Source: Acidobacteriota bacterium (GTDB lineage Bacteria > Acidobacteriota > Thermoanaerobaculia > Multivoradales > JAHEKO01). Taken from it: a DNA stretch of 52,817 nt. Positions within the stretch are counted from its first letter, which is position 1; each line of letters opens with the position of its first letter. A program made the translations under genes and the position numbers. The DNA is taken from assembly GCA_030597375.1 (NCBI GenBank), contig JAUVRX010000001.1:1-52817 (forward strand). The letters are read 5' to 3'. Shown here piece after piece: positions 26,613-52,817 of the stretch. The notes beneath the pieces are model-generated. The model did no database searches, was not told the origin of the DNA, and worked only from the letters and a program-made list of their open reading frames with translations.

Positions 26613-28481
26613 TCAGGCTTCTCCACGGCGCAGCAGGGTGAAGGTTGTCGTATCGAGCCGATCGTCCATCATGGTGTGGAACTTGTCGGCCGGGATGGCT
26701 CCAACGGGCATACCGGTCTCTTCTTCCAGACCCAGCATGAAGTCCCACCAGGCTTTCTCCCGGCGAGAGATCTCGTCCAGGTCGTGTACCTTGCCGAAAT
26801 CCTGCACGAAGCGGTTATGACGGCACAGTAGCCGGAAGACGTGCTCTGTGTTGGGACGGGGCGTCGGCAGGCCCAGCACCCGCACGTCGTTGCCGACCTG
26901 GTGGATGGGCTGACCCCACTCACTGTAGCCAGCGAAGATCGTCCCCAGCTTGTCGAGCGCATGAGCGATCTTGTCCTGCTTGGCAGCCTTCAGGATCTTG
27001 GTGACGATCGGTAGCGTAACGGTTCGATGCAGCGTCGGTTCCGCCAACTTCACCTTGACGCCCAGTTCCTCCTGGACGATCTGGGCAATCTGCTGGGAAG
27101 TCAGACGATGATCCCCAGCCAGATGGATTCTCTCGCCCACAGCTGCCGGCTTCTTGAGCGCAGCTAGAATCCCGGCCGCAACCCGGTCCACCGGTACCAG
27201 GTTGAGCTCCGCAGTGGGGTCGGCGGGAAACACACATGCCATCTTGGCCAGCATATGCCCCTTGGATCGAGCGATCCAACTGCCGTCCTGGGACGCGAGA
27301 GCCTCCTGGGCCCGTCCGAACAGGTTCACGGGAGCGTTGACCACCTTGGTATCACCGCGGTTGTTTCCAGCTTTGGTCTCACCGATGACGATGGCAGGGC
27401 ATAGTTGAACGACCCTGAGCCCCTTCTCCAGCATGAAGCGCTCGGTCTCGAAGGAAGCCATCGCTTTTGTGGCCTCGTAGAAGTTGTTGTAGAAATTTCG
27501 AGGAAACACCACTTCTGCCTCCCGAGCCAGACCCTTGACCTTGCGGCCGTGGATATAGGAGGTCTCGATGCCCAGATGTGCGACGAAGGAGCTACCCGGC
27601 ATCGATTGCACAGCGTGTGAGAACCGGAGGGCGTTCAGAGTTCCCGTCACATTGGCACGGAAAGACTTCTCATAGGGATCGTCGAAAGAGACACTGGCCG
27701 CACAGTGGACGACATGGGTGATCCGTGGTCCCAACTCCTCCAGAACCTCGGTGGCGATTCCCAGATTGGGCTGCTCCACGTCGCCTGCCACGAACGAGAA
27801 CTTGGCACGTGTCTCGGGAGTGTCGAGCCAAAGTCGATCCAGCAGCCGTTCGCCTCGCTCGGCCGGACTGAGGACCCGCACCACTTCCCCGGTCTTGCGA
27901 TCGACGACCTTTCGGGGTCGAATGACCACGATCATCTCTGCGATGTCATCATCTCGAGTCGCCTGCCAGATGATCTCCTTGCCGACGAAGCCCGTGCCCC
28001 CTGTCAACAGAACCCGCAAGGCCGGACGCCCCTTCCCTGACAGATTCTCCAGCTTCTCCCGAGCTTCCTCACGGAGCTCAGCCGGTCGCTGAGTGATCTC
28101 CGCTGTTGTCACCGACGGTCTCTTGAAACGGAAGAAATACTCTTTCTCCTTCAAACCGAACAACGCCTTGGACACCTTCGCGACGTCGCGCTGACCGATC
28201 AGCTTCGCAATCACCTCGGCGGCCCTCCGCCCCTTATGCCGCAGCTGCCGCATCTTCTTGCGGGCCTCCTCGGGACTGCCCGTCTCCCGGACCACCCGAC
28301 TCATCATGCGGCGGGCATGGATATCCAACAGGTGATAGTCACGATGCTGCTGGACCAGGAGCTGTTTCGGGAGAATCTCTTCATCGAGAATCTCTCCTGT
28401 GATCAGACTCACCTTCTCGATATATCGAGAAGGCCGCATCTCTTCAGGTAGTGTTGGCTCGACGCTCATTTCGGCAGTCAC
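26613..28481 (-). CDS. 622-aa extended-SDR, thioester/fatty-acyl reductase-like (NAD_binding_4-type core) with unrecognised N- and C-terminal extensions
   Basis: VLLTGGTGFVGKEIIW Rossmann motif starts about residue 165. YEATK (YxxxK). GTG 28481 preceded by AGAGGA, 12 nt after the radical SAM stop. Confidence 0.72.
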   Translation of the reverse strand: MTAEMSVEPTLPEEMRPSRYIEKVSLITGEILDEEILPKQLLVQQHRDYHLLDIHARRMMSRVVRETGSPEEARKKMRQLRHKGRRAAEVIAKLIGQRDVAKVSKALFGLKEKEYFFRFKRPSVTTAEITQRPAELREEAREKLENLSGKGRPALRVLLTGGTGFVGKEIIWQATRDDDIAEMIVVIRPRKVVDRKTGEVVRVLSPAERGERLLDRLWLDTPETRAKFSFVAGDVEQPNLGIATEVLEELGPRITHVVHCAASVSFDDPYEKSFRANVTGTLNALRFSHAVQSMPGSSFVAHLGIETSYIHGRKVKGLAREAEVVFPRNFYNNFYEATKAMASFETERFMLEKGLRVVQLCPAIVIGETKAGNNRGDTKVVNAPVNLFGRAQEALASQDGSWIARSKGHMLAKMACVFPADPTAELNLVPVDRVAAGILAALKKPAAVGERIHLAGDHRLTSQQIAQIVQEELGVKVKLAEPTLHRTVTLPIVTKILKAAKQDKIAHALDKLGTIFAGYSEWGQPIHQVGNDVRVLGLPTPRPNTEHVFRLLCRHNRFVQDFGKVHDLDEISRREKAWWDFMLGLEEETGMPVGAIPADKFHTMMDDRLDTTTFTLLRRGEA

Positions 28482-28493
28482 CGGATATCCTCT

Positions 28494-29699
28494 TCAATAG
28501 ATGAACTCTCGAATGTCATATCGACTGACCTTGAGATCCAGTCGTCTAATTATCTGTGCCATCCGCTGCAACTCAGCCTCGGTCTCTTCCTCCGTCATAG
28601 GAGTGAGGTCGGCCTTCGTTCGCCGCTCGGAATAGTCCGTCGACCCAGGCTGCTCCACGAAGGGTGACAGGTAGATCAGATCGGAATCATCGAGTGGCAG
28701 CTTCTTCAACACCTCGAGGCTGGCTCGGGCGTGCGCAGACCTGTATTCGCGACCGCCAAGACCTACCATCAGGATGAGGCAGACACTCAAGGAAGCCCCC
28801 TTGAGCTCCTCCACGAAGTTGCGCAACTCTATCGCAGAGCCCGGCTTGTTGACGAAGGCGAGCAGCTCGTCCAGGCCCGTCTCCATGCCGATATACACCC
28901 GTCTCAAGCCCAAATCCACAAGCCGCTTCCAATGCTCCAGGGGGCGCCGATCACCGCTGAAGAGGTCGATGAAACCGAACAGGGGGCGATCGGGGAAGAT
29001 CTCTTTCGCCGCCCCGATCAAGGGCTCCAGCCGTCTCAGAGATAGTGCCAGGGCGTTGCCATCAGCCAGGAAGATCCCTCGCCGCAGCGCGGCACCCGCT
29101 CCCAATAGATCCTTGACACCCGACGCGTGCTCCCGGAACTCGACTGGCGATTTCGTCTTGAAGGGCCGGTCCATATAGAAGCTACAAAAGGTGCACCGGT
29201 TCCAGCTGCAGCCCTCGGTCGCCTGGAGCACGATCGAGAGGTACTGATCTGGCGGCAAGATGGAGATGGGTCGATAGCAGGACAGGAAGCGCCGCCGCTC
29301 TGCCGCGAGACTCTCCGGAGTCCAGCGCAGGATTTCCTCACAGAGTCGGACCTCGAGCTCTCCGACGGCCCGGGCTCGGACCTCGCCCGCCAGAGCATAG
29401 GCCTCGAGGAAGATCGATCGCGCCTCGTCGGAAGGAAGCTGCCGCCGCTGCCGGCCACCGTCCTGAAACCGCAAATGAAGCTCACTGGACAGGCTCCGTT
29501 TGTAGGTCAGGCCCTGCCTGAAATAGAGATGCAGACGACCTTCTCGATCGAAGGTCAACGAGTGCTGTCGATTCGGGCTGATGACGGTCGCGCCCGGCGT
29601 CAGATTGACCAGCAGCCCGCGGTTCCCGGCCGGTGACCGATCCTGGCTGCCGCTCGTGTGAGCGACAAATGCGTCCCTTCCACTGGACATATGGTTCAA
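28494..29699 (-). CDS. Radical SAM protein with CX4CX2C cluster motif and ~160-aa unrecognised N-terminal region
   Basis: QATEGCSWNRCTFCSFY read directly from the codons tgc agc tgg aac cgg tgc acc ttt tgt. Downstream TIM-barrel-like GIFLADGNAL, VYIGMETG. Start uncertain (TTG 29699 or ATG 29690). Confidence 0.78.
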   Translation of the reverse strand: MNHMSSGRDAFVAHTSGSQDRSPAGNRGLLVNLTPGATVISPNRQHSLTFDREGRLHLYFRQGLTYKRSLSSELHLRFQDGGRQRRQLPSDEARSIFLEAYALAGEVRARAVGELEVRLCEEILRWTPESLAAERRRFLSCYRPISILPPDQYLSIVLQATEGCSWNRCTFCSFYMDRPFKTKSPVEFREHASGVKDLLGAGAALRRGIFLADGNALALSLRRLEPLIGAAKEIFPDRPLFGFIDLFSGDRRPLEHWKRLVDLGLRRVYIGMETGLDELLAFVNKPGSAIELRNFVEELKGASLSVCLILMVGLGGREYRSAHARASLEVLKKLPLDDSDLIYLSPFVEQPGSTDYSERRTKADLTPMTEEETEAELQRMAQIIRRLDLKVSRYDIREFIY

Positions 29700-30493: not shown

Positions 30494-32950
30494 CTATCGA
30501 CAGGTCGATGCGGAACCAAGCGAACGGCCACCGAGGCTCCAGATCGCCATCCCTGCGAAGCCGTAACAGGCGGCTGCAAACATCCCCATGGCATCGAGGC
30601 CGAAGTGGATCGCCACCAACGGCGCGAGGGCGGCGCTCACCACGGTCGCCCAGCCGTTGATACCCCAGGCCCATGGAATCCACCCGGGATGGATGCGTGC
30701 GAGGTGTTGCAGACCCAGTGGGAAAGGCATTCCCATCACGTAGGCCAAAGGCGCGACGACGAGCACGCTGATGAGGACCTTCCAACCAAGCCCCAGAGCC
30801 AGGGTCGCCCTGAAGATCACGGGCGTGAGGCCCAGATGCACCAGACAAAGCACCACGATCGCTCCGACGACAAGACCCGTCTTCGCCTGCAGACCGCTGC
30901 CTGTCGAACCGCTCAGTCTGCCGGCAGTTCCACTTCCCAGTCCGGCAAAGATCAGAAACGCGGCGAGAGCCGTAGCCACCGCGAAGATCGGGTCTCCCAC
31001 ATAGAGAATCACCCGCTGGATATAGGCGATTTCCAACATCAGAAAACCCAGGCCGAGTGCCGCGAAGAAGACCCAGGTCATCACCGAGCCGGCGCTCTGC
31101 TGCCAACCGCCTTTTCGAAGGACAAGTGGGAGAAGAATCAGGACTGAACCGGCAACAAGCGCCTGCGCCAAGGTTCCGAGCACTACGAGATAGCCCCACT
31201 CCAGCAGGGACGCTCCTCCCCGCTGCCGCAACTCCACCAGCTCCGGCACGGTACGCCAGCGGAAGAAGTGGGAGAAGAAGGGCCGATCATCGGTGGCAGG
31301 CTGAATGAAGAACTTGTAGTTGTCGATGAAGTCCTGACGATCCTCACCTACCAGAGCCATGGCTCCCTGATGAAGGTAGGGCTGTTCGAGGTGGTTGAAC
31401 CGATTCGCTTCCCCCGGTACCATATCGGGGAGGAAGACCACATCGAACCAACGGGACTCACACCACGCTCGGAGATCCTGCAGCTCGGTACTCGACCACC
31501 CTCCTCTCTTGACCAGAAGGGTCACCGCATCCCAGCTTCTCGCCATTACCAGGCTGCCCTTGGGGTTCTCCCAATCCAACGTCTCCAGCGCCTGCAATGC
31601 TGTGGCGAAGAGCTTGAGGCTGTCTCGGGGCGGCAGCCTCAAGCGCCGCGTCACCGACAACACGCCATCAGGCGTGAGATGCTCGACCAGCGCCGCCAGG
31701 GCCTCCACCGTGTACACGTAGCTGACGCCAGCGGCACCCACCCCGCCACTCGAAGCGGCGAGGGACTGCATCCCCCTCAGATCGATGACATCCCAGGCCT
31801 CTCGGTCCGCTGCCAAGAAGGCACGCATCTCTCCAACCCTCACATCGACGCTCGGCTCCTCCAGCAGGTGACCCGAGAACTCGGCCAACTCGCCCTGCAG
31901 CAACCGCAGCGACTGCGGGTTATGTTCGATAACCAGCACCCGCTCGGCTCCGTGCTCGAGGGCAGAGAGGACCCCCTCTCCACCCCCCAGGCCGATCACC
32001 AGAACGCGAGGGCTCTCAGACAGGTGGTAGCCAAGAAAGGAGACCTGATAGTCGAGGAAGCTCAGGCGACTCTTCCCTTGCCGACGTCGATTGACGACAC
32101 TCAGAGCATCGCCATCTTCGAAAAGCCCGATCTGCTCGGGGAGATCACCCTCGAAAGCGAGACTGAGCCCAGGTGCATACCGCAGAGGAATGGTGGGGCT
32201 ACGGACCACAGACAGCAGGGCCAGTGGACTCGACCTCTGGGTCACGACTTCAGTTCCGGGTACGAGAAGCGCATGGCTCAAGTCCTTGTACTCCGACTGC
32301 CGAAGTCTGAGCCAGCTACCGGGCAGTGCCATCAAGGCCAGCGATCCTGCGACCAGCAGCAGCGTCGTGGTTCGCTTCACGGCGACTCTGGGATCCAGGC
32401 TGGCAGCCGTTGCGGCAAGGAGGCCGCCGGCCCCGACCAGCAGAAGACACCGCTCTGGGGAGGTCGTCCAGAGTGCAACAACAACGGCTACCGCTCCGAG
32501 ACCGGCTCCCAATAGATCGGCCTGATAAAAGCGGAAGATCTCGCCTCGCCAAACCGTCAGGACGAGACCGATCGAAAAGCCGACACTGAAGAAAGGCAGG
32601 GCCAGGACGAGATAGACGAGGAGCAGCCAGAGCAGCTGTTCCAGCTCCCAAACCAGGGCCAGCGGATTGAAGGGTAGTCGCTGAGCCAACAGAAAGGCTC
32701 CCACCGACAACGGCGCGAACGATGCTGCGCTGACGAGCACAAAGCGGCCAGGCCTCGTGGTTGGACCGGCAAGCAGACGAGCCCGCATCAGGGCCAGGAC
32801 GCTGCCGCTAGCCCCGTAGCCCAACAGCGCGAGGCTGATCACCATGGCTGCGAATTGCTGCCACTGGATGATGGAAAACAGTCTGATCAGCAGGACTTCA
32901 TAGGCGATGGCCGCAGCCGACAGAATCAGGATGGCAAGACGGAGCGGCAT
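30494..32950 (-). CDS. Polytopic membrane protein fused to a spermidine-synthase-like (SpeE-fold) methyl/aminopropyl-transferase domain
   Basis: Multiple N-terminal and C-terminal TM helices flank a central soluble domain containing PRVLVIGLGGGEGVLSALEHGAERVLVIEHNPQSL. Confidence 0.8.
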   Translation of the reverse strand: MPLRLAILILSAAAIAYEVLLIRLFSIIQWQQFAAMVISLALLGYGASGSVLALMRARLLAGPTTRPGRFVLVSAASFAPLSVGAFLLAQRLPFNPLALVWELEQLLWLLLVYLVLALPFFSVGFSIGLVLTVWRGEIFRFYQADLLGAGLGAVAVVVALWTTSPERCLLLVGAGGLLAATAASLDPRVAVKRTTTLLLVAGSLALMALPGSWLRLRQSEYKDLSHALLVPGTEVVTQRSSPLALLSVVRSPTIPLRYAPGLSLAFEGDLPEQIGLFEDGDALSVVNRRRQGKSRLSFLDYQVSFLGYHLSESPRVLVIGLGGGEGVLSALEHGAERVLVIEHNPQSLRLLQGELAEFSGHLLEEPSVDVRVGEMRAFLAADREAWDVIDLRGMQSLAASSGGVGAAGVSYVYTVEALAALVEHLTPDGVLSVTRRLRLPPRDSLKLFATALQALETLDWENPKGSLVMARSWDAVTLLVKRGGWSSTELQDLRAWCESRWFDVVFLPDMVPGEANRFNHLEQPYLHQGAMALVGEDRQDFIDNYKFFIQPATDDRPFFSHFFRWRTVPELVELRQRGGASLLEWGYLVVLGTLAQALVAGSVLILLPLVLRKGGWQQSAGSVMTWVFFAALGLGFLMLEIAYIQRVILYVGDPIFAVATALAAFLIFAGLGSGTAGRLSGSTGSGLQAKTGLVVGAIVVLCLVHLGLTPVIFRATLALGLGWKVLISVLVVAPLAYVMGMPFPLGLQHLARIHPGWIPWAWGINGWATVVSAALAPLVAIHFGLDAMGMFAAACYGFAGMAIWSLGGRSLGSASTCR

Positions 32951-42906: not shown

Positions 42907-44376
<1,470 letters not shown>

Positions 44377-44378
44377 CG

Positions 44379-47363
44379 ATGAAGGTTCGCCAGCAGCAAC
44401 AGGCTCGTCGTTTTCACGACCTGATGCCCTTCCGAATACGGGAGGTTCTGCTGGTTTCGTCACCGTTCGACGCCTTCATTCTGGAAGAAGACGGTCAGCT
44501 CACCGAGCAGGTGTTCTTCGAATACCGGGACGTGAGTCTCTCGGGTCCACCCCGAGTGACTCACGTGCCCACCGGTGAGCTGGCAATGCAGCGGCTCGCG
44601 GAGCACCGCTACGACCTCATTCTGGTCATGACCAGCCTTGCCGACATGGGCGCCAATGCCCTTGGTCGGCAGATCAAGGAGTTCCGGCCTGGACGCCCCG
44701 TGGTGCTGCTGGCATTGGATCGAAAAGAGTTGGATCGAGCCAAATCCACCATCGACCCCGAGGCCATCGATGGAGTCTTCCTCTGGTCCGGCGACTCCTC
44801 CATCCTGCTAGCCATCATCAAGTACTTCGAGGATCGGGAGAACGTCGATCACGACATCCAGTACGGCAATGTGCGCGTCATCCTCATGGTCGAGGACTCC
44901 CCTCGCTACTACTCGAGCCTTTTCGGAACCCTCTACAAGGAGCTCATGCGACAGTCGCACTCGCTGTACTCCGAGGGTGTCAACGAGCTGCACCGCCGCA
45001 TGTACATGCGGTCCCGACCCAAGATTCTCCACGCCAAGACCTACGAGGAGGGCCTGGCCCTCTTCCATCGCTACCAGCACAACATCATTGCCCTGGTCAG
45101 TGATGTCGAGATCCCGCGGGACGGAAAGCCCGACAAGGCAGGAGGTCTCGAGCTGGTCCGCCAGGTCAGGGCCTTCGACTCCGAGCTTCCGGTCCTGCTG
45201 GAATCGGCCGAGGAGAGCAACAAAGCCAAAGCGGAGGCCGTCAGAGCCACCTTCGTCCACAAGGGCTCTGAGAGCCTTCTGGCGGACATTCGAAACTTCT
45301 TTCGGCAGGAGTTGGGCTTCGGGGATTTCGTCTTTCGCACCGACGCGGACGGCGAGGAGGTCGCACGCGCTCACGATGTTCGTGAATTCGAAAGACAGTT
45401 GGCAGTCGTGCCGGAAGAGACTCTCGTCTACCACGCCTCGCACAATCACTTCTCCGTCTGGCTGATGGCACGCAGTGAGTTCGACCTCGCCGAGCGACTC
45501 CGCCCCCGGCAGATCTCGGATTTCGAGAATGTCGAGGGACTGCGTCAATACCTCATCGCTCAGCTGCGTGAGACGCGCCGTAGCTCCTATCAGGGTGTGA
45601 TCGCGGACTTCTCCCGCAAGACCTTCGATCGAGATGTCTTCTCCCGGATCGATCAAAGCTCGATCGGAGGTAAGGCCCGGGGCCTGGCCTTCCTGAATCT
45701 GACTCTCTCCAAGAGCTCTCCGGAAGACTTCGGCGGCATGGCGGTGCGCGTCCCCAAGACCACGGTCATTACGACGGACAAGTTCGACGATTTCGTGGAC
45801 CGCAACGAACTTCGGGAGTTCGCCTACAAGTGCGACGATGATCGAGAGCTGAGTGACCGCTTTCTGAGCGCCAGATTGTCGGACGAGCTGAGGAGCGATC
45901 TGACCTTCATCACCCATCACATCGATGGGCCCCTGGCCATCCGTTCATCGAGCCTGTTGGAGGACTCGATGCATCAGCCGATGTCCGGGATCTACTCCAC
46001 CCTGATGATCCCCAATCGGTCGCGAGATCCCGAAGAGCGCCTCCAGCAGATCTGCACCGCAGTGAAACTGGTCTACGCCTCCACCTACTTCCGCAACGCC
46101 AAGAGCTACCTCACCAGTACAGGGAATCGCGTCGAAGAAGAGAAGATGGGCGTCATCATCCAGAAGCTGGTTGGCCAGCGGCACGGTCACCGCTTCTACC
46201 CCCATTTCGCCGGCATAGCACAGTCCCACAACTTCTACCCGATCGGAGCGCAGCGAGCCGAAGAAGGAATCGTCCACGTGGCTCTGGGACTCGGGCGACT
46301 GGTAGTGGATGGCGGACTGGCCCTGCGGTTCAGCCCCATGCAGCCGGCAATCCTTCCCCAGTACGCCACACCCAAGTTGGCCCTCGATAGCACTCAACGG
46401 GAGTTCTACGCCGTCGACCTGGATTCGTCGTGCTGCGATGTGGATGCCATCCTCTACACCAATGTGAAGCCTTTTCCGCTGGAGGTCGCCGAGCAGGATG
46501 GAACTCTCCTGCCAGTGGGCAGCGTCTACAGCGCCGATGATCAGACGATTCGAGACGACCTGAGCCTGCCCGGACCGAGACTGGTGAGCTTCAACAACAT
46601 CTTGAAACACAATGCGATCCCCCTGGCCCAGGCGCTCCGAAAGCTCCTGGACCTCGCCGAGGAAGGGCTTGGCTGCCCGGTCGAGATCGAGTTCGCCTGT
46701 GACATGGGGGACTGGGGCCGGCCAGGTGCTCCGGGCAAGGGTCGAGCACAACCTGTTCTCTACCTGCTGCAAGTGAGGCCGTTCGCTACTCGAACAGCCG
46801 GCAAGGAAGTCACACGGTTTCGCTTTACGACAGCCGAGACGCTCTGCAGATCCAAGAGAAGCCTCGGTCACGGTGTCGAGGACGGTGTCCGCGACGTGGT
46901 CTATGTCCGTCGAGACCGCTGGACAGCGGCCAACAACAAGAAAATCGCTGGCGAGATCGGCGAGATGAACCAGATGCTGGGTGAAGCCGGGCGACCCTAC
47001 CTCCTGGTCGGACCCGGGCGCTGGGGTACGGCAGATCCGTGGCTGGGAATCCCCGTCCAGTGGACGCAGATCTCCAACGTGCGTGCAATCATCGAAGCCT
47101 CGCCGAAGGGCTACGATGTCGAGCCCTCGCAGGGCACCCACTTCTTCCAGAACATCGTCTCACTGCGGGTCGGCTACCTCACCCTGCCCCCGGGGGCGGA
47201 CACCCCGGAGGATGGAGCGGAGTTCCTCGACTGGGATTGGCTCGATTCGCAGCCGGCCACCAGCGAGACCGATCACCTGCGCTACCTGCACCTGGAGCAG
47301 CCGCTCACCGTCGTGCTGAACGGACGTGAAGGTCGCGGTGTCATCGCCAAGCCCAAGAGCTAG
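44379..47363 (+). CDS. Receiver-like domains fused to a PEP/pyruvate-binding (PPDK_N ATP-grasp) domain protein, function unknown
   Basis: N-terminal REC-like folds (IREVLLVSSPFDAF..., VILMVEDSPRYYS...ALVSDVEIP). IGGKARGLAFLN ATP-grasp motif. No recognisable phospho-His swivel or PEP-binding barrel. ATG 44379 lies 2 nt after the gdhA stop. Confidence 0.78.
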   Translation: MKVRQQQQARRFHDLMPFRIREVLLVSSPFDAFILEEDGQLTEQVFFEYRDVSLSGPPRVTHVPTGELAMQRLAEHRYDLILVMTSLADMGANALGRQIKEFRPGRPVVLLALDRKELDRAKSTIDPEAIDGVFLWSGDSSILLAIIKYFEDRENVDHDIQYGNVRVILMVEDSPRYYSSLFGTLYKELMRQSHSLYSEGVNELHRRMYMRSRPKILHAKTYEEGLALFHRYQHNIIALVSDVEIPRDGKPDKAGGLELVRQVRAFDSELPVLLESAEESNKAKAEAVRATFVHKGSESLLADIRNFFRQELGFGDFVFRTDADGEEVARAHDVREFERQLAVVPEETLVYHASHNHFSVWLMARSEFDLAERLRPRQISDFENVEGLRQYLIAQLRETRRSSYQGVIADFSRKTFDRDVFSRIDQSSIGGKARGLAFLNLTLSKSSPEDFGGMAVRVPKTTVITTDKFDDFVDRNELREFAYKCDDDRELSDRFLSARLSDELRSDLTFITHHIDGPLAIRSSSLLEDSMHQPMSGIYSTLMIPNRSRDPEERLQQICTAVKLVYASTYFRNAKSYLTSTGNRVEEEKMGVIIQKLVGQRHGHRFYPHFAGIAQSHNFYPIGAQRAEEGIVHVALGLGRLVVDGGLALRFSPMQPAILPQYATPKLALDSTQREFYAVDLDSSCCDVDAILYTNVKPFPLEVAEQDGTLLPVGSVYSADDQTIRDDLSLPGPRLVSFNNILKHNAIPLAQALRKLLDLAEEGLGCPVEIEFACDMGDWGRPGAPGKGRAQPVLYLLQVRPFATRTAGKEVTRFRFTTAETLCRSKRSLGHGVEDGVRDVVYVRRDRWTAANNKKIAGEIGEMNQMLGEAGRPYLLVGPGRWGTADPWLGIPVQWTQISNVRAIIEASPKGYDVEPSQGTHFFQNIVSLRVGYLTLPPGADTPEDGAEFLDWDWLDSQPATSETDHLRYLHLEQPLTVVLNGREGRGVIAKPKS

Positions 47364-47517: not shown

Positions 47518-48105
47518 TCAAGCCGATGTGGTGAGCAGCCGTTCGAACTGCTCCTTCGAGAAAGCCTCGACCTCCGTATGCAGAGAGCCACCATGGGCAT
47601 CCATGGTCACCATGACCGGAAACTTCTCGACCTGAATGACCCAGAGGGCCTCGGGCACGCCGAACTCCTCCAACATGAAGACCCGCTCGACTTTCTTCAC
47701 GGCCTGGGCCAGGACCTGCGCCGCCCCTCCGACGGCATGCAGGTAGAGGGCCCCACTCCTCCTCAGACCTTCGAGGGTCTCGAGACCCATACCACCTTTG
47801 CTGATCACTCCACGCAAGCCGTATCTCTCGATCACTTCGGCCTGATAGGGCTCCTCCCTGATCGAGGTCGTGGGCCCTGCTGCTACGAACTCGTAGGTCT
47901 CGTCCTCCAGCTGCCGGACAACCGGACCACAGTGGTAGATGACCGATCCTTCCAGGAAGGGGGCCACCTCTTGCCGGGTATCCTCCAACAGCCACTGGTG
48001 AGCGGCGTCGCGGCCCGTGATCATTCGACCCGTCAACTCGACACTGGCACCGACCTTCAGGTCCCGCACTGTCTTCTCGTCCATGGGTAACTTCAGTTCA
48101 ACCAT
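47518..48105 (-). CDS. Class I (Fe-S) fumarate hydratase / tartrate dehydratase, beta subunit
   Basis: LTGRMITGRDAAHQWL and GPTTSIREEPY motifs typical of Fe-S hydro-lyase beta subunits. Overlaps the alpha subunit gene by 13 nt. Confidence 0.85.
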   Translation of the reverse strand: MVELKLPMDEKTVRDLKVGASVELTGRMITGRDAAHQWLLEDTRQEVAPFLEGSVIYHCGPVVRQLEDETYEFVAAGPTTSIREEPYQAEVIERYGLRGVISKGGMGLETLEGLRRSGALYLHAVGGAAQVLAQAVKKVERVFMLEEFGVPEALWVIQVEKFPVMVTMDAHGGSLHTEVEAFSKEQFERLLTTSA

Positions 48106-48977
48106 GTCACCGCTCCTTCCTGGTCGAGACTGACGGCAGCACGGCGGTCAGCCCAGCACATGTAGCTCACGGTCACGAAGTAGGAAGCCGGCAACCGGTC
48201 CAGAACGCCGACCTTCACTCCCAGGACCGTTGTGCGGCCCCCGAAACCCATCGGCCCGATACCCAGTTCGTTGGCCTCCTTCAGCAATCGCTCCTCCAGC
48301 TCGGCGAGCTCCAGGATGGGATTGGTGTCCGGCAGGGGGCGCAAGAGCTGGCATTTGGACTCCGAGAACCCCGACACCCGGTCACCCCCGAGGCAGACGC
48401 CCAGGACCCCTGGAGCACAACCCTTCCCCTGAGCCTCGACCACGGCATCCAGAACAACTCTACGGACACCCTCCAGATTGCGGCCCGCCTGGAGGCGGGT
48501 GTCGGGTAGCTTGTATTGGGTGCCGACGTTCTCGCAGCCTCCGCCCTTCAGGATCAGCCGCACTTCGACCTTGGGCTCTTCCCATTCTTCGAAGTGCAGG
48601 AAGGGTATAGCCCTGCCGGAGCCATCACCGGTGTTCTTGCCTGTCAGCGTATCGACGGCATTCGGTCGGAGAAAGGTCTTGGCGGTGGCCTCCTTCACCG
48701 CCTCCTGCATGGCCTCCTCGAGCAGGCGAGTGCCGGTGCCTACGGGATAGCGCACCCAGGCCACCGGGGTGCCGGTGTCCTGGCAGATCGGGGCCGACTT
48801 CTGGCGTGCCAGGTCGACATTGTCCAGGATTGTGTCCAGAGCCCGCCGAGCCAGGCTGTCATCCACTTCTCGCTCTCGCCCCTCCTCCAATGCCTGCACG
48901 ACATCGGGCGGCAGTTCGGTCGAGGCCCGGCGTATCAGCTCCACAAAGGTGTCCACGTATTGCTCCTTCGTCAGCAT
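48093..48977 (-). CDS. Class I (Fe-S) fumarate hydratase / tartrate dehydratase, alpha subunit
   Basis: ORF trimmed to ATG 48977 (AAGGAG upstream). SAPICQDTGTPV, ILKGGGCENV motifs. Confidence 0.88.
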   Translation of the reverse strand: MLTKEQYVDTFVELIRRASTELPPDVVQALEEGREREVDDSLARRALDTILDNVDLARQKSAPICQDTGTPVAWVRYPVGTGTRLLEEAMQEAVKEATAKTFLRPNAVDTLTGKNTGDGSGRAIPFLHFEEWEEPKVEVRLILKGGGCENVGTQYKLPDTRLQAGRNLEGVRRVVLDAVVEAQGKGCAPGVLGVCLGGDRVSGFSESKCQLLRPLPDTNPILELAELEERLLKEANELGIGPMGFGGRTTVLGVKVGVLDRLPASYFVTVSYMCWADRRAAVSLDQEGAVTWLN

Positions 48978-49139
48978 AGGCTGCTCCTTCGATGCGGGTC
49001 GGCACCGACTCGACCCAGTTGGGTCCGAGACGTCCGATCCCTGGATATCCCAGGTTTCCATTTGCGGGGTCCGACACGCGAGGGAACTCCCCGCCCTGTT
49101 CATCCCTATGTTCTCAGGCCGTGAATCGCCTTTGAACAC

Positions 49140-49172
49140 CTCACTGGGTGGGCTGACTCCCCACCCCGTGAG
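49140..49172 (-). terminator. Terminator-like hairpin downstream of the hemerythrin-like gene
   Basis: CTCAC-T-GGGTGGG / loop CTGACTC / CCCACCC-C-GTGAG gives 12 bp with one mismatch. Only a weak U-run follows on the minus-strand RNA. Confidence 0.4.
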
Positions 49173-49210
49173 ACTGGCAGGGACTCCGTTATTCAGCCCA
49201 TGGCACCGAT

Positions 49211-49684
49211 TCAGTCCCCGGCACCCTGGTCTCGATACTCGAGGCGCTGAAACAGGTCGGTCTCTTCCTGCTCATGATGATGCAGAGTGTCCAGCAGCGA
49301 CAGGGTCCGTTGCCGAAGCTTCGGATCCTCGGGCAATTCACCCTCGGAGTAGGTCAGCGCATCCGTCATGATCGACCTCAGGTCGCGAAGCATGATGGGA
49401 TGCTGCCCAATGACTGCCTCCAGCCTGGACAGGGCACGGGGATGACGTTCGACGACATCCTCCACCAGCCCCATGGACTCCTCGAAGCGAAAGTGGCGAA
49501 ACAGCTCGTCGTGCAGCTTCACCAGACGCATCGAGAGATCGGAGGCCCAGGTGTGGGCTCCCTTCTCGCCCGCCTCGGGCCTGGCGCCAGCCAGAACCTG
49601 TCGCAGATCGGCGCACATCACCCGGAGGCGCTTGTGCTCCTCGAGCACCTCTTCGATCCAGTCCTGCGTTACCACGGTCGTCAT
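49211..49684 (-). CDS. Hemerythrin-like (HHE cation-binding) domain protein
   Basis: ORF trimmed to ATG 49684 (GGGAGGGGGA upstream). H/E-rich helices EEHKRL, LHDELFRHFRFEE, LLDTLHHHEQEETDLF. Confidence 0.6.
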   Translation of the reverse strand: MTTVVTQDWIEEVLEEHKRLRVMCADLRQVLAGARPEAGEKGAHTWASDLSMRLVKLHDELFRHFRFEESMGLVEDVVERHPRALSRLEAVIGQHPIMLRDLRSIMTDALTYSEGELPEDPKLRQRTLSLLDTLHHHEQEETDLFQRLEYRDQGAGD

Positions 49685-49697
49685 GCGTTCCCCCTCC

Positions 49698-49877
49698 CTA
49701 TTCAGGATTCGATTGCCCCCCGGAGGCAAGACTGGCAGCAGCCTGTGGTGTCTCCAACCTGACGCTGTTGCTGCCACATCGTGGACAGCTGCGCTCCACC
49801 ACCTCTTTGGGGTCATGGTCCATCGGAAAGCGATGCTGACAGCGAAGGCAGTAGAACGTCTTGATCTGCTTCGCCAT
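49698..49877 (-). CDS. 59-aa zinc-ribbon protein
   Basis: ATG 49877 preceded by GAGGGAG. MAKQIKTFYCLRCQHRF...SCPRCGSNSV has two CxxC pairs. Embedded in a longer spurious ORF (49698..50360). Confidence 0.55.
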   Translation of the reverse strand: MAKQIKTFYCLRCQHRFPMDHDPKEVVERSCPRCGSNSVRLETPQAAASLASGGQSNPE

Positions 49878-49900
49878 GATGGACTCCCTCGTGTTCGTTC

Positions 49901-52381
49901 TCAGTTCTGGATGGGCAGAACTGGCTCTCGTCTCTTCTTGGGAGGACTGGCCGAGCTTGCTTTCGACCTTTCCTTCTCGAGAATCTGCATGGTCTCCTCG
50001 ACCTCCTTCGCGGTCACCTGCCGCAGCAAGGAGTCGAGCTCCGTCATGATGCGAGCGAACTTCTGACCTTCCGCCGCGGAGATCCACTCCAGTTGCAGCC
50101 GCTCTGGACGGATTCCCAGCTTCTCCATCTTGTTCCAGATCTTCTCCACCCGTCGCTGCGTCCAGGTCACCGCGTCGATGTAGTGGCAGTCGGTGAAGTG
50201 GCAGCCCGAAATCAACACCAATGGAGCTCCCCGCCTGAAAGCGTGCCAGATAAAAGCCTGATCGACCCGTCCACTGCACATGGTCCGAATGAGGCGAACG
50301 GAAGCCGGATACTGAAGCCGCGAGGTCCCGGCGTTGTCGCCGCCGGCGTAAGAGCACCAATTACAGGCGAAACCGACGATCTTCTGCAGGGGATTCTCGG
50401 CCAGGATGCCGTCGATCTGCGCCAGGACCTGGCTGTCGGTGAAGTGGCGCATGTCGATGGCATCGAAGGGGCATTCCGCGGCGCAAGTGCCACAGCCCGC
50501 ACAGGCGGCCTCGACAAAGTGTGGCAGGAGCCCCTTCTTCTTGTCGGCCGGCTCGATGGCGTGAAATGGGCAGACCCGAGCGCAGATCGTACAGAGCTGA
50601 CAACGGTCCGGATCGAGGGTCGCGGTAATGGCCTCGATTCGCACCTGCCCAGCACCCAATAGATTGGCTGCCCTGCCGGCAGCGGCCCCGGCTTGCGTGA
50701 CGGTGTCCTTGACGTCTTTCGGTGATTCGACGCAGCCGGCGAAGTAGACTCCTCGGGTCGGGGCATCCACCGGCTTCAGCTTCGGGTGAGCCTCCATCAC
50801 GAACCCATCGGAGGTGTGCGAGAGGCTCAGGATCTCGTCGATGCTGCGCTTGCCGTTACCGTTGGAGCGACGCGGTACCAGGCCCACCGCCAGGACCAGC
50901 ATGTCCAGATGGTGCTCCTCCAGCGCCCCGGTGAGCGTGTTCTCGACCTCGACGATGAGGTCTCCTCCCTCGGGTGCCTGCCTCACATTGCCGGGCAGAC
51001 CTCTCACGTATCGCACGCCCGCTTCACGGCTGCGCCGGTAGAGGTCTTCGAACCCCTTGCCGAACGCCCGGATATCCATGTAGTAGACCGTCGACCGGCT
51101 CTCCGGATAGTGATCCGCCAGTAGCAGCGTCTCCTTGATCGTGTTCATGCAACAGATATTCGAACAGTAGGGAACACCCCGTTGGAGCGACCGGGAGCCG
51201 ACGCACTGCACGAATCCGACATGCTTCGGCACCTTACGGTCGGAAGGCCGCACCAATTCACCATCGGTCGGGCCGCCAGCGTTGATCAGTCTCTCGAACT
51301 CCATGCTGGTAACGACGTTCGGAAATCGGGTATAGCCATACTCATCGTTCTGGCGCGGATCATAGACCTCCATTCCGGTGGCCACGACAACCGTTCCCAC
51401 CTCGAGATCCAGGAGCTCGTCCTTGGCGTCGAAGTCGATGCACTTCTTGTCGCAGACCTCGAGGCACTTGCCGCAGGCGATCGGGTTGAAACCCAGACAG
51501 GCTTCGCCGTCGAGGCTGAATGCCGAGGGTACGGCCTGGGGGAAGGGCAGGTAGATTGCCTTTCGCGACGACAGACCTTCCTGGTACGCGTCCGGAACCA
51601 CAACGGGGCAGACCTTCTCGCATTCGCCACAGGAAGTGCATTCATCGGTATCGACGTAGCGGGCTCGGCGCCGTACCTGGACGCGGTAGTTGCCGACGAA
51701 GCCCGTGATGTCCTCGACCTCGGAATCGACCAGTAACTCGATGCGGGGATGCCGACCGGCATCCATCATTTTAGGGCCGAGGATTCATATCGAGCAGTCC
51801 ATGGTCGGGAAGGTCTTGTCCAACGCGGCCATGATCCCGCCTATGGAAGGCTCCTTTTCCACCAGATAGACCTGGTGGCCACCATCCGCCAGCTCGAGAG
51901 CCGTCTGAATGCCAGCCACACCCCCGCCAATGACCAGTGCCGCGTCGGTCACAGGGAAGATCTTCTCGTCCTGGGGTTCGAGCATCCGAGACCGACCGAC
52001 CGCGCTGCGCACGAGATCTTTCGCCTTCTCGGTAGCTGCCTCGCGATCATGAATGTGAACCCAGCTGCAGTGCTCGCGGATATTGGCCATCTCGACCAGA
52101 TAGGGATTCAATCCGGCATCGGCAACACAGTTCCGGAACGTCGGCTCGTGGATCTTCGGGGTACACGAAGCCACGACGACGCGATTGAGGTCATACTCGG
52201 CGATGGCTTTCTTGATCTCGTTCTGGCCCGGATCGGCACAGGTGTAGCGATTGCGAACGACTGCCACCACGTCGGGCAGCTCACTGGCAAAGCGGGCAAC
52301 CTCCTCTGTATCCACCGTGCCGGCGATGTTCAAGCCGCAATCGCAAACGAAGACACCGATACGCAAGGCTTGGTCTGTCAT
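49901..52381 (-). CDS. hdrA: Heterodisulfide reductase subunit A fused to MvhD, with predicted selenocysteine at in-frame TGA (51787..51785); 826 aa read-through product
   Basis: ORFs 51785..52381 and 49901..51769 share a frame (the span is 2481 nt, or 827 codons). Junction [23 protein letters not shown] motif [16 protein letters not shown]. Several CxxCxxCxxxCP ferredoxin motifs. C-terminal MvhD domain [16 protein letters not shown]...CSGRV. Confidence 0.85.
51741..51769 (-). promoter_or_regulatory. SECIS-like stem-loop downstream of the hdrA TGA
   Basis: mRNA GGAUGCC-GGUC-GGCAUCC (51764..51747) starts 20 nt after the UGA. GGUC apical loop as in E. coli fdhF SECIS. Possible lower stem AUG/CAU (51769-51767 / 51743-51741) across an internal loop. 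Confidence 0.55.
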
Positions 52382-52396
52382 GAACCTCTCCTGTCT

Positions 52397-52817
52397 CTAG
52401 CGTTCCGACGGTGAGTCCTTCTCCGCTTCATCGTTGATCGTCAGCAGACTGGCAGCGAGGACCGTGAGATCCTCGACCTGAATCTCGGCCGCCTGCCGTT
52501 CGTTGCGCCGATCCTCGGCCTGGGCACATCGGAAGTGAATCAGGCACTTGGGGCAGGCGGTAACCAACCTCGAGGCACCGGTCGCTGCGGCGCTCGCCAA
52601 CCTCTGTGTCTGGAGCCTTCTGGAGTCCCGATTGCACTGAATGAACCCCGGGGTGCCGCAGCACTGTGCATCGACACCCGAGCGCTCCATCTCCACGACC
52701 TCACTGCCGGGCAGCGATGCCATGACCTGCCGAGGCGCATCGAAGACTCCCAACTGCCTTCCCAGCCTGCACGGATCGTGGAAGGTCATGGTGCCGGCCT
52801 CTCCAAGATGCCGAAAA
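52397..52817 (-). CDS. CCG-domain (HdrB/HdrD-type cysteine-rich) protein, 5'-partial (continues beyond the window)
   Basis: The reading frame stays open to the window edge. CCG-type motifs FHDPCRLGR...GVFDAPR and CCGTPG...ACPKCLIH. Lies 15 nt upstream of hdrA. Confidence 0.75.
   Translation of the reverse strand, partial: FRHLGEAGTMTFHDPCRLGRQLGVFDAPRQVMASLPGSEVVEMERSGVDAQCCGTPGFIQCNRDSRRLQTQRLASAAATGASRLVTACPKCLIHFRCAQAEDRRNERQAAEIQVEDLTVLAASLLTINDEAEKDSPSER

Follow-up and report, generated by a model that had tools for sequence, protein, structure and literature searches.

The window considered here, i.e., the whole stretch of DNA that was analysed (52.8 kb; 52,817 nt), belongs to contig JAUVRX010000001.1 of a host from the Thermoanaerobaculia/Acidobacteriota lineage. 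Two of its minus-strand ORFs, 51785..52381 (198 aa) and 49901..51769 (622 aa), use a common reading frame. The initial annotation had described them as one frame split by a TGA and five codons, and every coordinate bears this out: the interval 49901..52381 measures 2481 nt, or 827 codons, its sole internal stop is the TGA at 51787..51785, and the five sense codons ILGPK (51784..51770) separate this TGA from the ATG at 51769. From the proximal to the distal end, the locus comprises the following features:

52397..52817, minus strand: 3' part of an hdrC/hdrB-fusion gene (CCG cysteine-rich domain; PF02754 CCG, E 1.4e-17), cut by the window end
52386..52393, minus strand: Shine-Dalgarno-like AGGAGAGG, 4 nt upstream of the ATG at 52381 (direct sequence reading)
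49901..52381, minus strand: hdrA-mvhD (HdrA2-type), interpreted as a single gene (826 residues plus stop)
51785..51787, minus strand: in-frame UGA, predicted selenocysteine codon, residue 199; U of the C-x-x-U in D-C-S-I-U
51770..51784, minus strand: Ile-Leu-Gly-Pro-Lys codons, from the UGA to the ATG taken by gene callers as the start of the 622-aa ORF
51747..51764, minus strand: candidate SECIS apical hairpin GGAUGCC-GGUC-GGCAUCC (7-bp stem and GGUC tetraloop), overlapping the codons M-D-A-G-R-H-P
49901..49903, minus strand: ordinary TGA stop ending hdrA-mvhD

The ATG at 52381 is found in the context GAGACAGGAGAGGTTCATG, while the internal ATG at 51769 is found in the context TCGGCCCTAAAATGATG, in which direct reading of the sequence reveals no comparable purine-rich or Shine-Dalgarno motif before the codon. 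The coding signal is strong on both flanks of the TGA (GC3-GC2 of 0.32 and 0.33). TGA is the commonest stop codon of the window, where it terminates 27 of 42 genes, hdrA-mvhD among them; an alternative genetic code with TGA as a sense codon is rejected for this reason. When the window was scanned for further coding regions interrupted by TGA, no other convincing candidate emerged: a radical-SAM gene and an NAD_binding_4 gene around 28494 simply lie in the same frame.

The read-through product aligns over residues 6-661 with the HdrA structure PDB 5ODC_A (E 3.9e-231, ~60% identity over 650 residues). The alignment is unbroken across the junction and includes every cluster-binding region. It is followed by a match to MvhD (5ODC_D, E 1.4e-38, residues 667-785), and the Pfam analysis places PF02662 FlpD at 668-788, Pyr_redox_2/FAD at 149-240 and Fer4 at 241-311 and 587-646. 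HdrA thus spans residues 1-661 and MvhD/FlpD about 667-788, and the protein exhibits the HdrA2 domain order: Fe-S, FAD domain with an inserted ferredoxin, C-terminal 2x[4Fe-4S] ferredoxin, and MvhD. The HdrA2 profile NF040770 scores 1152.5 bits, as compared to an NCBI cutoff of 1100, and is covered from position 1 to 776 of 777. A 2026 review assigns this profile to the CxxU HdrA selenoprotein family (PMC13188914).

The TGA had been proposed to occupy the second Cys position of a DCSxC-type motif, and an alignment to homologues had been suggested to see whether the column holds Cys or Sec. The column corresponds to the second Cys of DCSIC (Cys197 in 5ODC_A); it is Cys in all 90 full-length database homologues, and the equivalent residue is Sec197 in the M. 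maripaludis HdrA structure (PMC13518236). As the initial annotation had pointed out, HdrA counts among the established selenoprotein families of bacteria; its motif is CxxU (PMC13188914, PMC1794560, PMC5029168). One tally puts the family at 103 selenoprotein genes, spread over 42 bacterial genomes (PMC5029168). Fold, domain order, Sec column (Cys197/Sec197) and CxxU motif of the known Sec-HdrA (NF040770) are all shared here. The fusion to MvhD/VhuD, present in this protein, is also on record and frequent for HdrA2.

Eighty related loci from independent assemblies and about ten phyla were compared. TGA is found at the column in 73 of them, and 93 TGA genes stand against seven genes with TGT or TGC. 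The hosts of the TGA genes are Acidobacteriota, Zixibacteria, KSB1, Calditrichota, Ignavibacteria, Eisenbacteria, Gemmatimonadota and Chloroflexota, and the protein identity of the relatives is about 60-97%. The relative JAUWSP01 is 97% identical; JBATEX01 and CAMYLC01 are 92% identical. Among the 93 distinct sequences, the amino acids ILGPK are invariant (K or R at the fifth position), while they are written with 3, 5, 4, 4 and 8 different codons in turn. Conservation of the residues despite such synonymous variation indicates that these five codons are translated, and translation across the UGA is thereby supported at the codon level. The ATG equivalent to 51769 is replaced by CTG or GCT in three of the 93 sequences. 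Nevertheless, as had been anticipated of automated gene callers, all 30 close relatives in a large protein database show the same split: they are recorded as truncated 622-aa proteins beginning with MMDAGRHP, under the names ‘HdrA’ or ‘hydrogenase iron-sulfur subunit’.

The hairpin GGAUGCC-GGUC-GGCAUCC, which had been pointed out at 51764..51747, begins 20 nt after the UGA. Its DNA equivalent GGATGCC-GGTC-GGCATCC has a single match in the window, as compared to 0 expected (100 shuffles). Across the 93 distinct TGA sequences the consensus is GGAUGYC-GGUC-GRCAUCC, with 99.1% of the cells paired, and pair 35-42 covaries (C-G in 51, U-A in 29, U-G in 12). Four synonymous sites of the hairpin are invariant in 93/93 sequences (GAT, GGT, CAT, and the second hairpin codon, which always ends in C), whereas the major-base frequency at other synonymous third positions is 0.35-0.77 downstream and 0.42-0.77 upstream. 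The lone upstream exception is the ATA codon directly before the TGA (0.94). Conversely, the seven TGT/TGC genes keep the peptide D-(A/V)-G-R-H-P and have lost the hairpin. The stem-loop energy is -7.0 to -11.5 kcal/mol in the Sec genes, as compared to -1.6 to -4.2 in the Cys genes, for which MFE values alone were used because the energy of the target hairpin is not meaningful on sequences with non-canonical pairs. Judged from this comparison of sequences, the hairpin is under selection, and in UGA-bearing genes only.

By itself, the 61-nt region of this sequence shows no gain in folding over its shuffled versions (z = 0.15, with an equally good fold in 104 of 200 shuffles), so that the hairpin exceeds chance through the comparative evidence. 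The possible lower stem that had been mentioned together with it does form in this sequence; as a conserved element it is rejected, as its columns (13-16/54-57 and 25-27/51-53) are 70-81% paired with no convincing compensation, and RNAalifold predicts the upper-stem helix alone. A search with a SECIS model had also been suggested. Rfam release 15 gives no match, neither in the whole window at the gathering threshold nor in 51680..51830 at E <= 10; this weighs little, since bacterial SECIS elements are notoriously heterogeneous (PMC12013277). Bacterial SECIS elements are otherwise described as stem-loops that directly follow the UGA and carry a G in a small apical loop (PMC1088965), and a 7-bp stem with a GGUC loop 20 nt past the UGA is what is observed here.

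The SECIS of E. coli fdhF provides the closest comparison, being the only well-dissected one. Its sequence, TGACACGGCCCATCGGTTGCAGGTCTGCACC, was confirmed by 5419 of 5426 genomes and by 5413 of 5420 records at >=99% identity. Both elements directly follow the UGA, inside the coding sequence, and, as had been noticed, their loops are alike: the GGUC tetraloop is identical. In fdhF, loop nucleotides G23 and U24 are the SelB contacts (PMC8659212). The two elements nevertheless differ in detail. Counted from the U of the UGA, the loop occupies nt 31-34 here and nt 22-25 in fdhF, the hairpin starting 20 nt after the UGA instead of 11 nt (9 nt further); the stem is a perfect 7-bp helix devoid of the bulged U17 of fdhF, and the extended lower helix is not conserved. 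Archaeal SECIS elements sit in the UTR and not in the coding sequence. The element described here, within hdrA-mvhD itself, differs in this respect from that of archaeal Sec-HdrA.

Taken together, the interval 49901..52381 is very probably one gene, whose 826-residue product is an HdrA2-type flavo-iron-sulfur protein fusing HdrA and MvhD, with selenocysteine at the UGA codon 199, and the in-frame TGA almost certainly encodes selenocysteine. The treatment by gene callers corresponds to another reading, in which the TGA is a genuine stop between two polypeptides, the 198-aa N-terminal fragment and a 622-aa protein with ATG 51769 as its start codon, possibly reassembling as a split HdrA. The 622-aa database entries of the 30 close relatives and the predominance of TGA among the stop codons of the window agree with it, and a 198-aa product is expected as a by-product under selenium limitation even for a selenoprotein gene. 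However, such a split would fall inside the CxxC motif of the FAD/thioredoxin-reductase-like domain, the supposedly intergenic five codons keep their amino acids and vary synonymously, and the internal ATG has no Shine-Dalgarno motif and is missing in some relatives. A genuine stop also leaves unexplained why four synonymous sites and a compensatory hairpin pair are fixed in TGA-bearing genes only, and it is considered very improbable.

An error of sequencing or assembly, or the recent mutational inactivation (pseudogene) of a normal TGC/TGT Cys codon, has two points in its favour: a one-base change of TGA to TGC or TGT would restore Cys, and Cys-type homologues exist (7 of the 80 loci and 90 database proteins). 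The possibility of an assembly error had been raised from the start; the TGA recurs in 73 of 80 independent assemblies, which come from many different studies and phyla, and is not an error. Both flanks remain coding, at about 60-97% identity to relatives, and a co-conserved downstream hairpin is not expected of an error or of a decaying gene, so that this explanation is effectively refuted. Finally, the UGA could be recoded as Cys or Trp by near-cognate or suppressor decoding, the hairpin being a generic read-through stimulator or a pause site. Several results would fit: the Sec machinery is not found in the window, no Rfam SECIS model matches, and the spacing and the missing bulged U are unlike E. 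coli fdhF. But the position is the exact Sec site of archaeal HdrA and of the family CxxU motif, an alternation of Sec and Cys at a redox Cys is the usual hallmark of selenoproteins, and TGA acts as an ordinary stop elsewhere, hdrA-mvhD itself ending with one. Recoding to Cys or Trp therefore has a very small probability, and selenocysteine is by far the preferred assignment.

As to the machinery itself, the Pfam analysis of 39 ORFs identifies no selA, selB or selD in the 52.8-kb window, and no tRNA-Sec is found in the window, nor by ARAGORN in 60 related loci. Sec-decoding Acidobacteriota are documented in the literature; in the literature searched, no joint mention of Thermoanaerobaculia and selenocysteine was found.

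The hdrC/hdrB-fusion gene located upstream stops 15 nt before the hdrA start. Its full-length orthologue, in a locus 92% identical to this one, is 397 amino acids long and assembles Fer4 and 2xCCG. The loci of close relatives also hold a GltD-like NAD(P)H oxidoreductase-MvhD protein and a 2-oxoacid:ferredoxin oxidoreductase (OFOR). The context of hdrA-mvhD is thus made of hdrCB, the GltD-like-MvhD gene and OFOR, and hydrogenase genes are absent. The described bacterial Sec-HdrA are mostly from Deltaproteobacteria and Clostridia, in hdrA-frhD-frhG-frhA or glpC operons, whereas the present one belongs to Thermoanaerobaculia/Acidobacteriota and has the above neighbours without hydrogenase genes. 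The HdrABC-Mvh/Vhu complexes of the methanogens Methanothermococcus thermolithotrophicus and Methanococcus maripaludis (PDB 5ODC; 9SW2-9SW6 series) contain an HdrA that is ~60% identical. As compared to these complexes, the MvhD homologue is present but fused to HdrA, HdrC and HdrB are fused and encoded next door, and no [NiFe] hydrogenase is found nearby. The host being bacterial and non-methanogenic, CoM-S-S-CoB is unlikely to be the substrate. The gene order suggests that HdrA-MvhD works with the HdrC/B fusion encoded just upstream, its presumed partner subunit.

By analogy with the characterised bacterial pathway, the ribosome would reach the UGA and the hairpin 20 nt downstream would bind SelB, GTP and Sec-tRNA(Sec); SelB would then deliver Sec in competition with release factor 2. 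SelB binding and actual Sec insertion at this UGA are inferred from that pathway. Translation would carry on from the UGA to the true stop at 49901, so that Sec would stand in for the second Cys of C-x-x-C in the FAD domain, which resembles thioredoxin reductase, and would have a redox role there. In the solved archaeal HdrA, Cys197/Sec197 is either a ligand of the N-terminal [4Fe-4S] cluster of the partner protomer, or part of a Cys-Sec redox pair from this cluster to the bifurcating FAD. HdrA-MvhD, HdrC/B, GltD-like-MvhD and OFOR would form a soluble flavin-based electron-bifurcating complex, a composition suggested by the shared gene neighbourhood.

A further idea concerns the spread of the element. 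The near-invariant 18-nt SECIS, superimposed on M-D-(A/V)-G-R-H-P and common to Sec-HdrA2 genes and their tandem paralogues in some ten phyla, might reflect a single Sec-hdrA2 cassette that has spread horizontally more than once, or else a module for SelB recognition that is unusually rigid. This proposal is tentative and rather unlikely. If true, the 18-nt hairpin could serve as a universal, portable SECIS and could mark unrecognised Sec-decoding lineages (Thermoanaerobaculia, Zixibacteria, KSB1, Eisenbacteria). In the same vein, recoding efficiency might be tuned by the rare AUA codon that is fixed directly before the UGA.

The hdrA-mvhD gene is an ordinary new addition to a long-known bacterial selenoprotein family. 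Sec-HdrA being already well known, the knowledge of recoding is unchanged by these findings, and their consequences for annotation, physiology and mechanism are all modest. Databases systematically miscall the Sec-hdrA-mvhD gene, and their truncated entries hide a redox-active selenoenzyme in Thermoanaerobaculia and many uncultured phyla; the pattern TGA-N20-GGATGYCGGTCGRCATCC offers a simple means of repairing the split gene calls. The role of Cys197/Sec197, cluster ligand or Cys-Sec relay to FAD, is open according to the 2026 M. maripaludis paper (PMC13518236), and the many bacterial Sec/Cys pairs at this site could inform that question. For the organism itself, the findings imply Sec decoding in this acidobacterial lineage and a selenium requirement for what is probably an Hdr-type complex with flavin-based electron bifurcation.

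ORF finding divides the hdrA-mvhD locus into two parts that lie in one common frame:

51785..52381, minus strand, ORF of 198 aa
49901..51769, minus strand, ORF of 622 aa

Translation of 49901..52381 gives 827 codons ending at TGA 49903..49901, with TGA 51787..51785 as the sole internal stop; the latter is separated by five sense codons (ILGPK) from the ATG of the 622-aa ORF. As read from the sequence, a Shine-Dalgarno-like AGGAGAGG is found ahead of ATG 52381, and no comparable motif upstream of ATG 51769. The CxxC of the MvhD domain (C-N-W-C) is written with TGT and TGC codons, and the one internal TGA implies a protein with a single Sec. The initial annotation was accurate in every coordinate and sequence statement (ORFs, frame, TGA, five codons, hairpin site).

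Homology searches were performed with the 826-aa read-through protein, Cys being set at the TGA. It aligns with HdrA of Methanothermococcus thermolithotrophicus (PDB 5ODC_A; E 3.9e-231, residues 6-661) and MvhD (5ODC_D; E 1.4e-38, residues 667-785). Pfam reports a FAD/pyridine-nucleotide-disulfide fold, three ferredoxin-type regions and FlpD/MvhD (668-788), while NCBIfam NF040770 (‘CoB-CoM heterodisulfide reductase HdrA2’) scores 1152.5 bits, exceeding its curated cutoff of 1100; this model is given for the HdrA selenoprotein family, motif CxxU, in a 2026 review (PMC13188914). The HMMER alignment is unbroken across the junction and sets query residue 199 (the TGA) against Cys197 of 5ODC_A, bearing out the placement of the TGA at the second Cys of the DCSxC motif (here D-C-S-I-C) of the FAD domain. 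Cys197 has been described as the ligand through which one HdrA protomer binds its partner's N-terminal [4Fe-4S] cluster (PMC9012536). In the M. maripaludis complex, whose cryo-EM structure dates from 2026, this residue is Sec197, and a selenylsulfide relay (Cys-Sec) leading to the FAD has been proposed there (PMC13518236).

All 30 relatives of at least 89% identity found in a 5.8-billion-protein database are 622- or 613-aa fragments starting with MMDAGRHP, from JGI, ENA and NCBI assemblies. Among the entries related to 49901..51769 (P0001-P0031 and P0036), some bear the name ‘hydrogenase iron-sulfur subunit’ or ‘heterodisulfide reductase subunit A’. These fragments show that gene calling goes wrong systematically at the Sec codon in JGI, ENA and NCBI metagenome annotations, as anticipated by the claim that callers miss the recoding and report truncated genes. 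Full-length relatives (64-67% identity) possess Cys at the TGA column in 90/90 cases. Scanning GTDB species, each represented by one genome, yielded 80 loci, 73 with TGA at this column (Sec-type) and seven with TGT or TGC (Cys-type: L051, L055, L058, L060, L073, L078, L079), which answers positively the question of whether homologues carry Cys or Sec there. Counting tandem paralogues, 93 distinct TGA-bearing sequences are available. Their hosts are Thermoanaerobaculia and other Acidobacteriota, Zixibacteria, KSB1, Calditrichota, Ignavibacteria, Eisenbacteria, Gemmatimonadota and Chloroflexota (classes Anaerolineae and Dehalococcoidia); the nearest relatives, at 92-97% identity, are Thermoanaerobaculia or other Acidobacteriota loci.

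Conservation of the TGA column across so many hosts excludes both an assembly error and a private pseudogene. A genetic code using TGA as a sense codon is also excluded, as TGA otherwise ends 27 of the 42 window genes and is their commonest stop codon. From the TGA to the ‘start’ ATG, the intervening codons read I-L-G-P-(K/R) in 93/93 sequences, with 3, 5, 4, 4 and 8 different codons used, respectively. Because the amino acids are fixed while the codons vary, this segment bears the mark of protein-level purifying selection in the hdrA frame and not that of an intergenic spacer. In 3/93 sequences CTG or GCT stands in place of the ‘start’ ATG, and coding composition is equal and strong on either side of the TGA (GC3-GC2 of 0.32 and 0.33).

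Another pair of reading frames with a TGA between them occurs at 26613..29699 (minus):

28494..29699, minus strand, radical-SAM gene, in the same frame as the next gene, with TGA and 12 nt between
26613..28481, minus strand, NAD_binding_4/‘male sterility’ reductase-like gene, 622 aa

These were taken as separate genes, the TGA context (YDIREFIY*RGYP) being unlike a Cys/Sec site. Elsewhere, an 818-aa ORF (30494..32950, minus) displays a strong coding signal (GC3 0.73) and no Pfam family at E <= 1e-5.

Downstream of the hdrA TGA lies the SECIS candidate:

51764..51747, minus strand, hairpin GGATGCC-GGTC-GGCATCC, starting 20 nt after the TGA

Alone and without comparison, this hairpin is statistically unremarkable. 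The single-sequence fold of the 61-nt region is no better than shuffles (z = 0.15), and Rfam gives no match to the hairpin region even at E <= 10; the motif has a single site in the window and none across 100 shuffles. On an ungapped 94-sequence alignment, pairing in the 7-bp stem reaches 99.1% of cells (slid-partner controls, 20-57%). Five pairs are invariant and one covaries (C-G 51, U-A 29, U-G 12, other 1), several lineages containing both states; C-to-U turns Ala into Val, and the compensating G-to-A is synonymous in Arg. The upper 7-bp helix is the only one predicted by RNAalifold, and the lower stem suggested initially is only 70-81% paired and unsupported. Within the hairpin the codons used are GAT (93/93, never GAC), GYC (third base always C), GGT (93/93), CGG/CGA/AGG and CAT (93/93); this genome's own usage is 0.41 for GAT, 0.21 for GGT and 0.43 for CAT. 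Nearby synonymous third positions have major-base frequencies of 0.35-0.77, except the ATA codon before the TGA (0.94). The D-(A/V)-G-R-H-P peptide is encoded in the seven Cys-type genes as well, with the synonymous sites scrambled, and the 18 nt there have an MFE of -1.6 to -4.2 kcal/mol, as compared to stem-loop energies of -7.0 to -11.5 kcal/mol (mean -10.35) in Sec-type genes. Stem pairing, the covarying pair, fixed synonymous sites and the weaker fold of the Cys-type genes thus uphold the SECIS-like hairpin, and the comparative evidence for it as a putative SECIS is strong.

The E. coli fdhF SECIS sequence used for comparison matches fdhF in 5419/5426 E. coli genomes, with at least 99% identity in 5413/5420 matching records. 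The hdrA loop GGUC is identical to the verified fdhF loop, of which it had been called reminiscent. The SelB determinants of fdhF are loop G23/U24 and bulged U17, and its minimal hairpin starts 11 nt past the UGA (PMC8659212). Unlike fdhF, the hdrA stem is without a bulge and starts 20 nt after the UGA.

The codon directly 5' of the UGA (51788..51790, minus; columns 4-6 of alignment A1) is the rare Ile codon AUA, which represents 3.7% of Ile codons in window genes and 2/44 in hdrA. It precedes the UGA column in 87/93 Sec-type and also in 5/7 Cys-type genes. Its fixation could mean that codon context influences recoding, or could be an ancestral relic.

A second hdrA is present upstream at many loci from Zixibacteria, Calditrichota, Ignavibacteria and Eisenbacteria:

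about 5.2 kb from the main match: L020:297, L021:1388, L024:1058, L026:1364
likewise about 5.2 kb: L031-L037, L039, L044-L046, L050, L053, L066, L075, L077, L080
further sites: L016:202-241 (minus strand), L069:1487-1526

These paralogues share the in-frame TGA (often D-C-A-I-U) and the hairpin (GGAUGYC-GGUC-GRCAUCC), and are hence tandem Sec-HdrA genes. In L001, the 92%-identical relative of the window's lineage, there is no second hdrA within 6 kb upstream.

Standard bacterial Sec insertion is the best-supported prediction for UGA199: the hairpin would recruit SelB with GTP and Sec-tRNA(Sec), which would decode UGA199 and so equip the FAD domain of the HdrA2-type product with a C-x-x-U site for redox or ligand function. 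The 52.8-kb window contains no selA, selB, selD or tRNA-Sec, and no tRNA-Sec was found in 60 related loci. Sec-decoding Acidobacteriota are on record (PMC1794560), and Occallatibacter riparius is a Sec-decoding acidobacterium (PMC12013277); a literature search returned no paper tying Thermoanaerobaculia to selenocysteine. The neighbors of the gene are:

52397..52817, minus strand, 3' end of a CCG-domain gene, ending 15 nt upstream
49698..49879, minus strand, 60-aa zinc-ribbon ORF (CxxC...CxxC), directly downstream, no Pfam match
within 49211..49816, minus strand, hemerythrin-like protein, downstream
48093..49139, minus strand, class I fumarate hydratase alpha, downstream
47518..48105, minus strand, class I fumarate hydratase beta, downstream

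The order of the downstream block (47518..49879) is syntenic in L001. Converging on the fumarase genes, a plus-strand gene (44373..47363) encodes a 996-aa protein of unusual architecture, an N-terminal response-regulator receiver with a PEP-utilising/pyruvate phosphate dikinase N-terminal (ATP-binding) domain. The L001 counterpart of the CCG-domain gene is a 397-aa HdrC/HdrB fusion with two CCG domains. In L001:18-5985 the order is 2-oxoacid:ferredoxin oxidoreductase alpha/beta/gamma, an 803-aa GltD-like NAD(P)H oxidoreductase-ferredoxin-MvhD fusion, the HdrC/HdrB fusion and Sec-HdrA-MvhD, an arrangement suggestive of a bifurcating complex linked to NAD(P)H/ferredoxin that may act on a thiol or disulfide substrate. 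No hydrogenase or formate dehydrogenase gene lies near Sec-hdrA-mvhD (52397..52817 and L001:18-5985), and a soluble Hdr-type complex that bifurcates or confurcates electrons independently of hydrogenase would be a reasonable proposal.

Recognition of HdrA as an archaeal and bacterial selenoprotein family dates from the early 2000s. The published counts, 16 genes in 2006 (PMC1794560) and 103 genes in 42 bacterial genomes in 2016 (PMC5029168), together with the dedicated NCBI model, agree with its description as an established family; HdrA-MvhD fusions were previously known. The gene conforms to the family in every sequence-level feature that could be tested. The original observation is confirmed and its interpretation as a Sec-recoded hdrA-mvhD supported, pointing to a new, formerly mis-annotated Sec-HdrA in an under-described host lineage. 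It adds little to recoding biology, is of modest value for annotation practice, and has a modest bearing on the role of Sec197 in HdrA.
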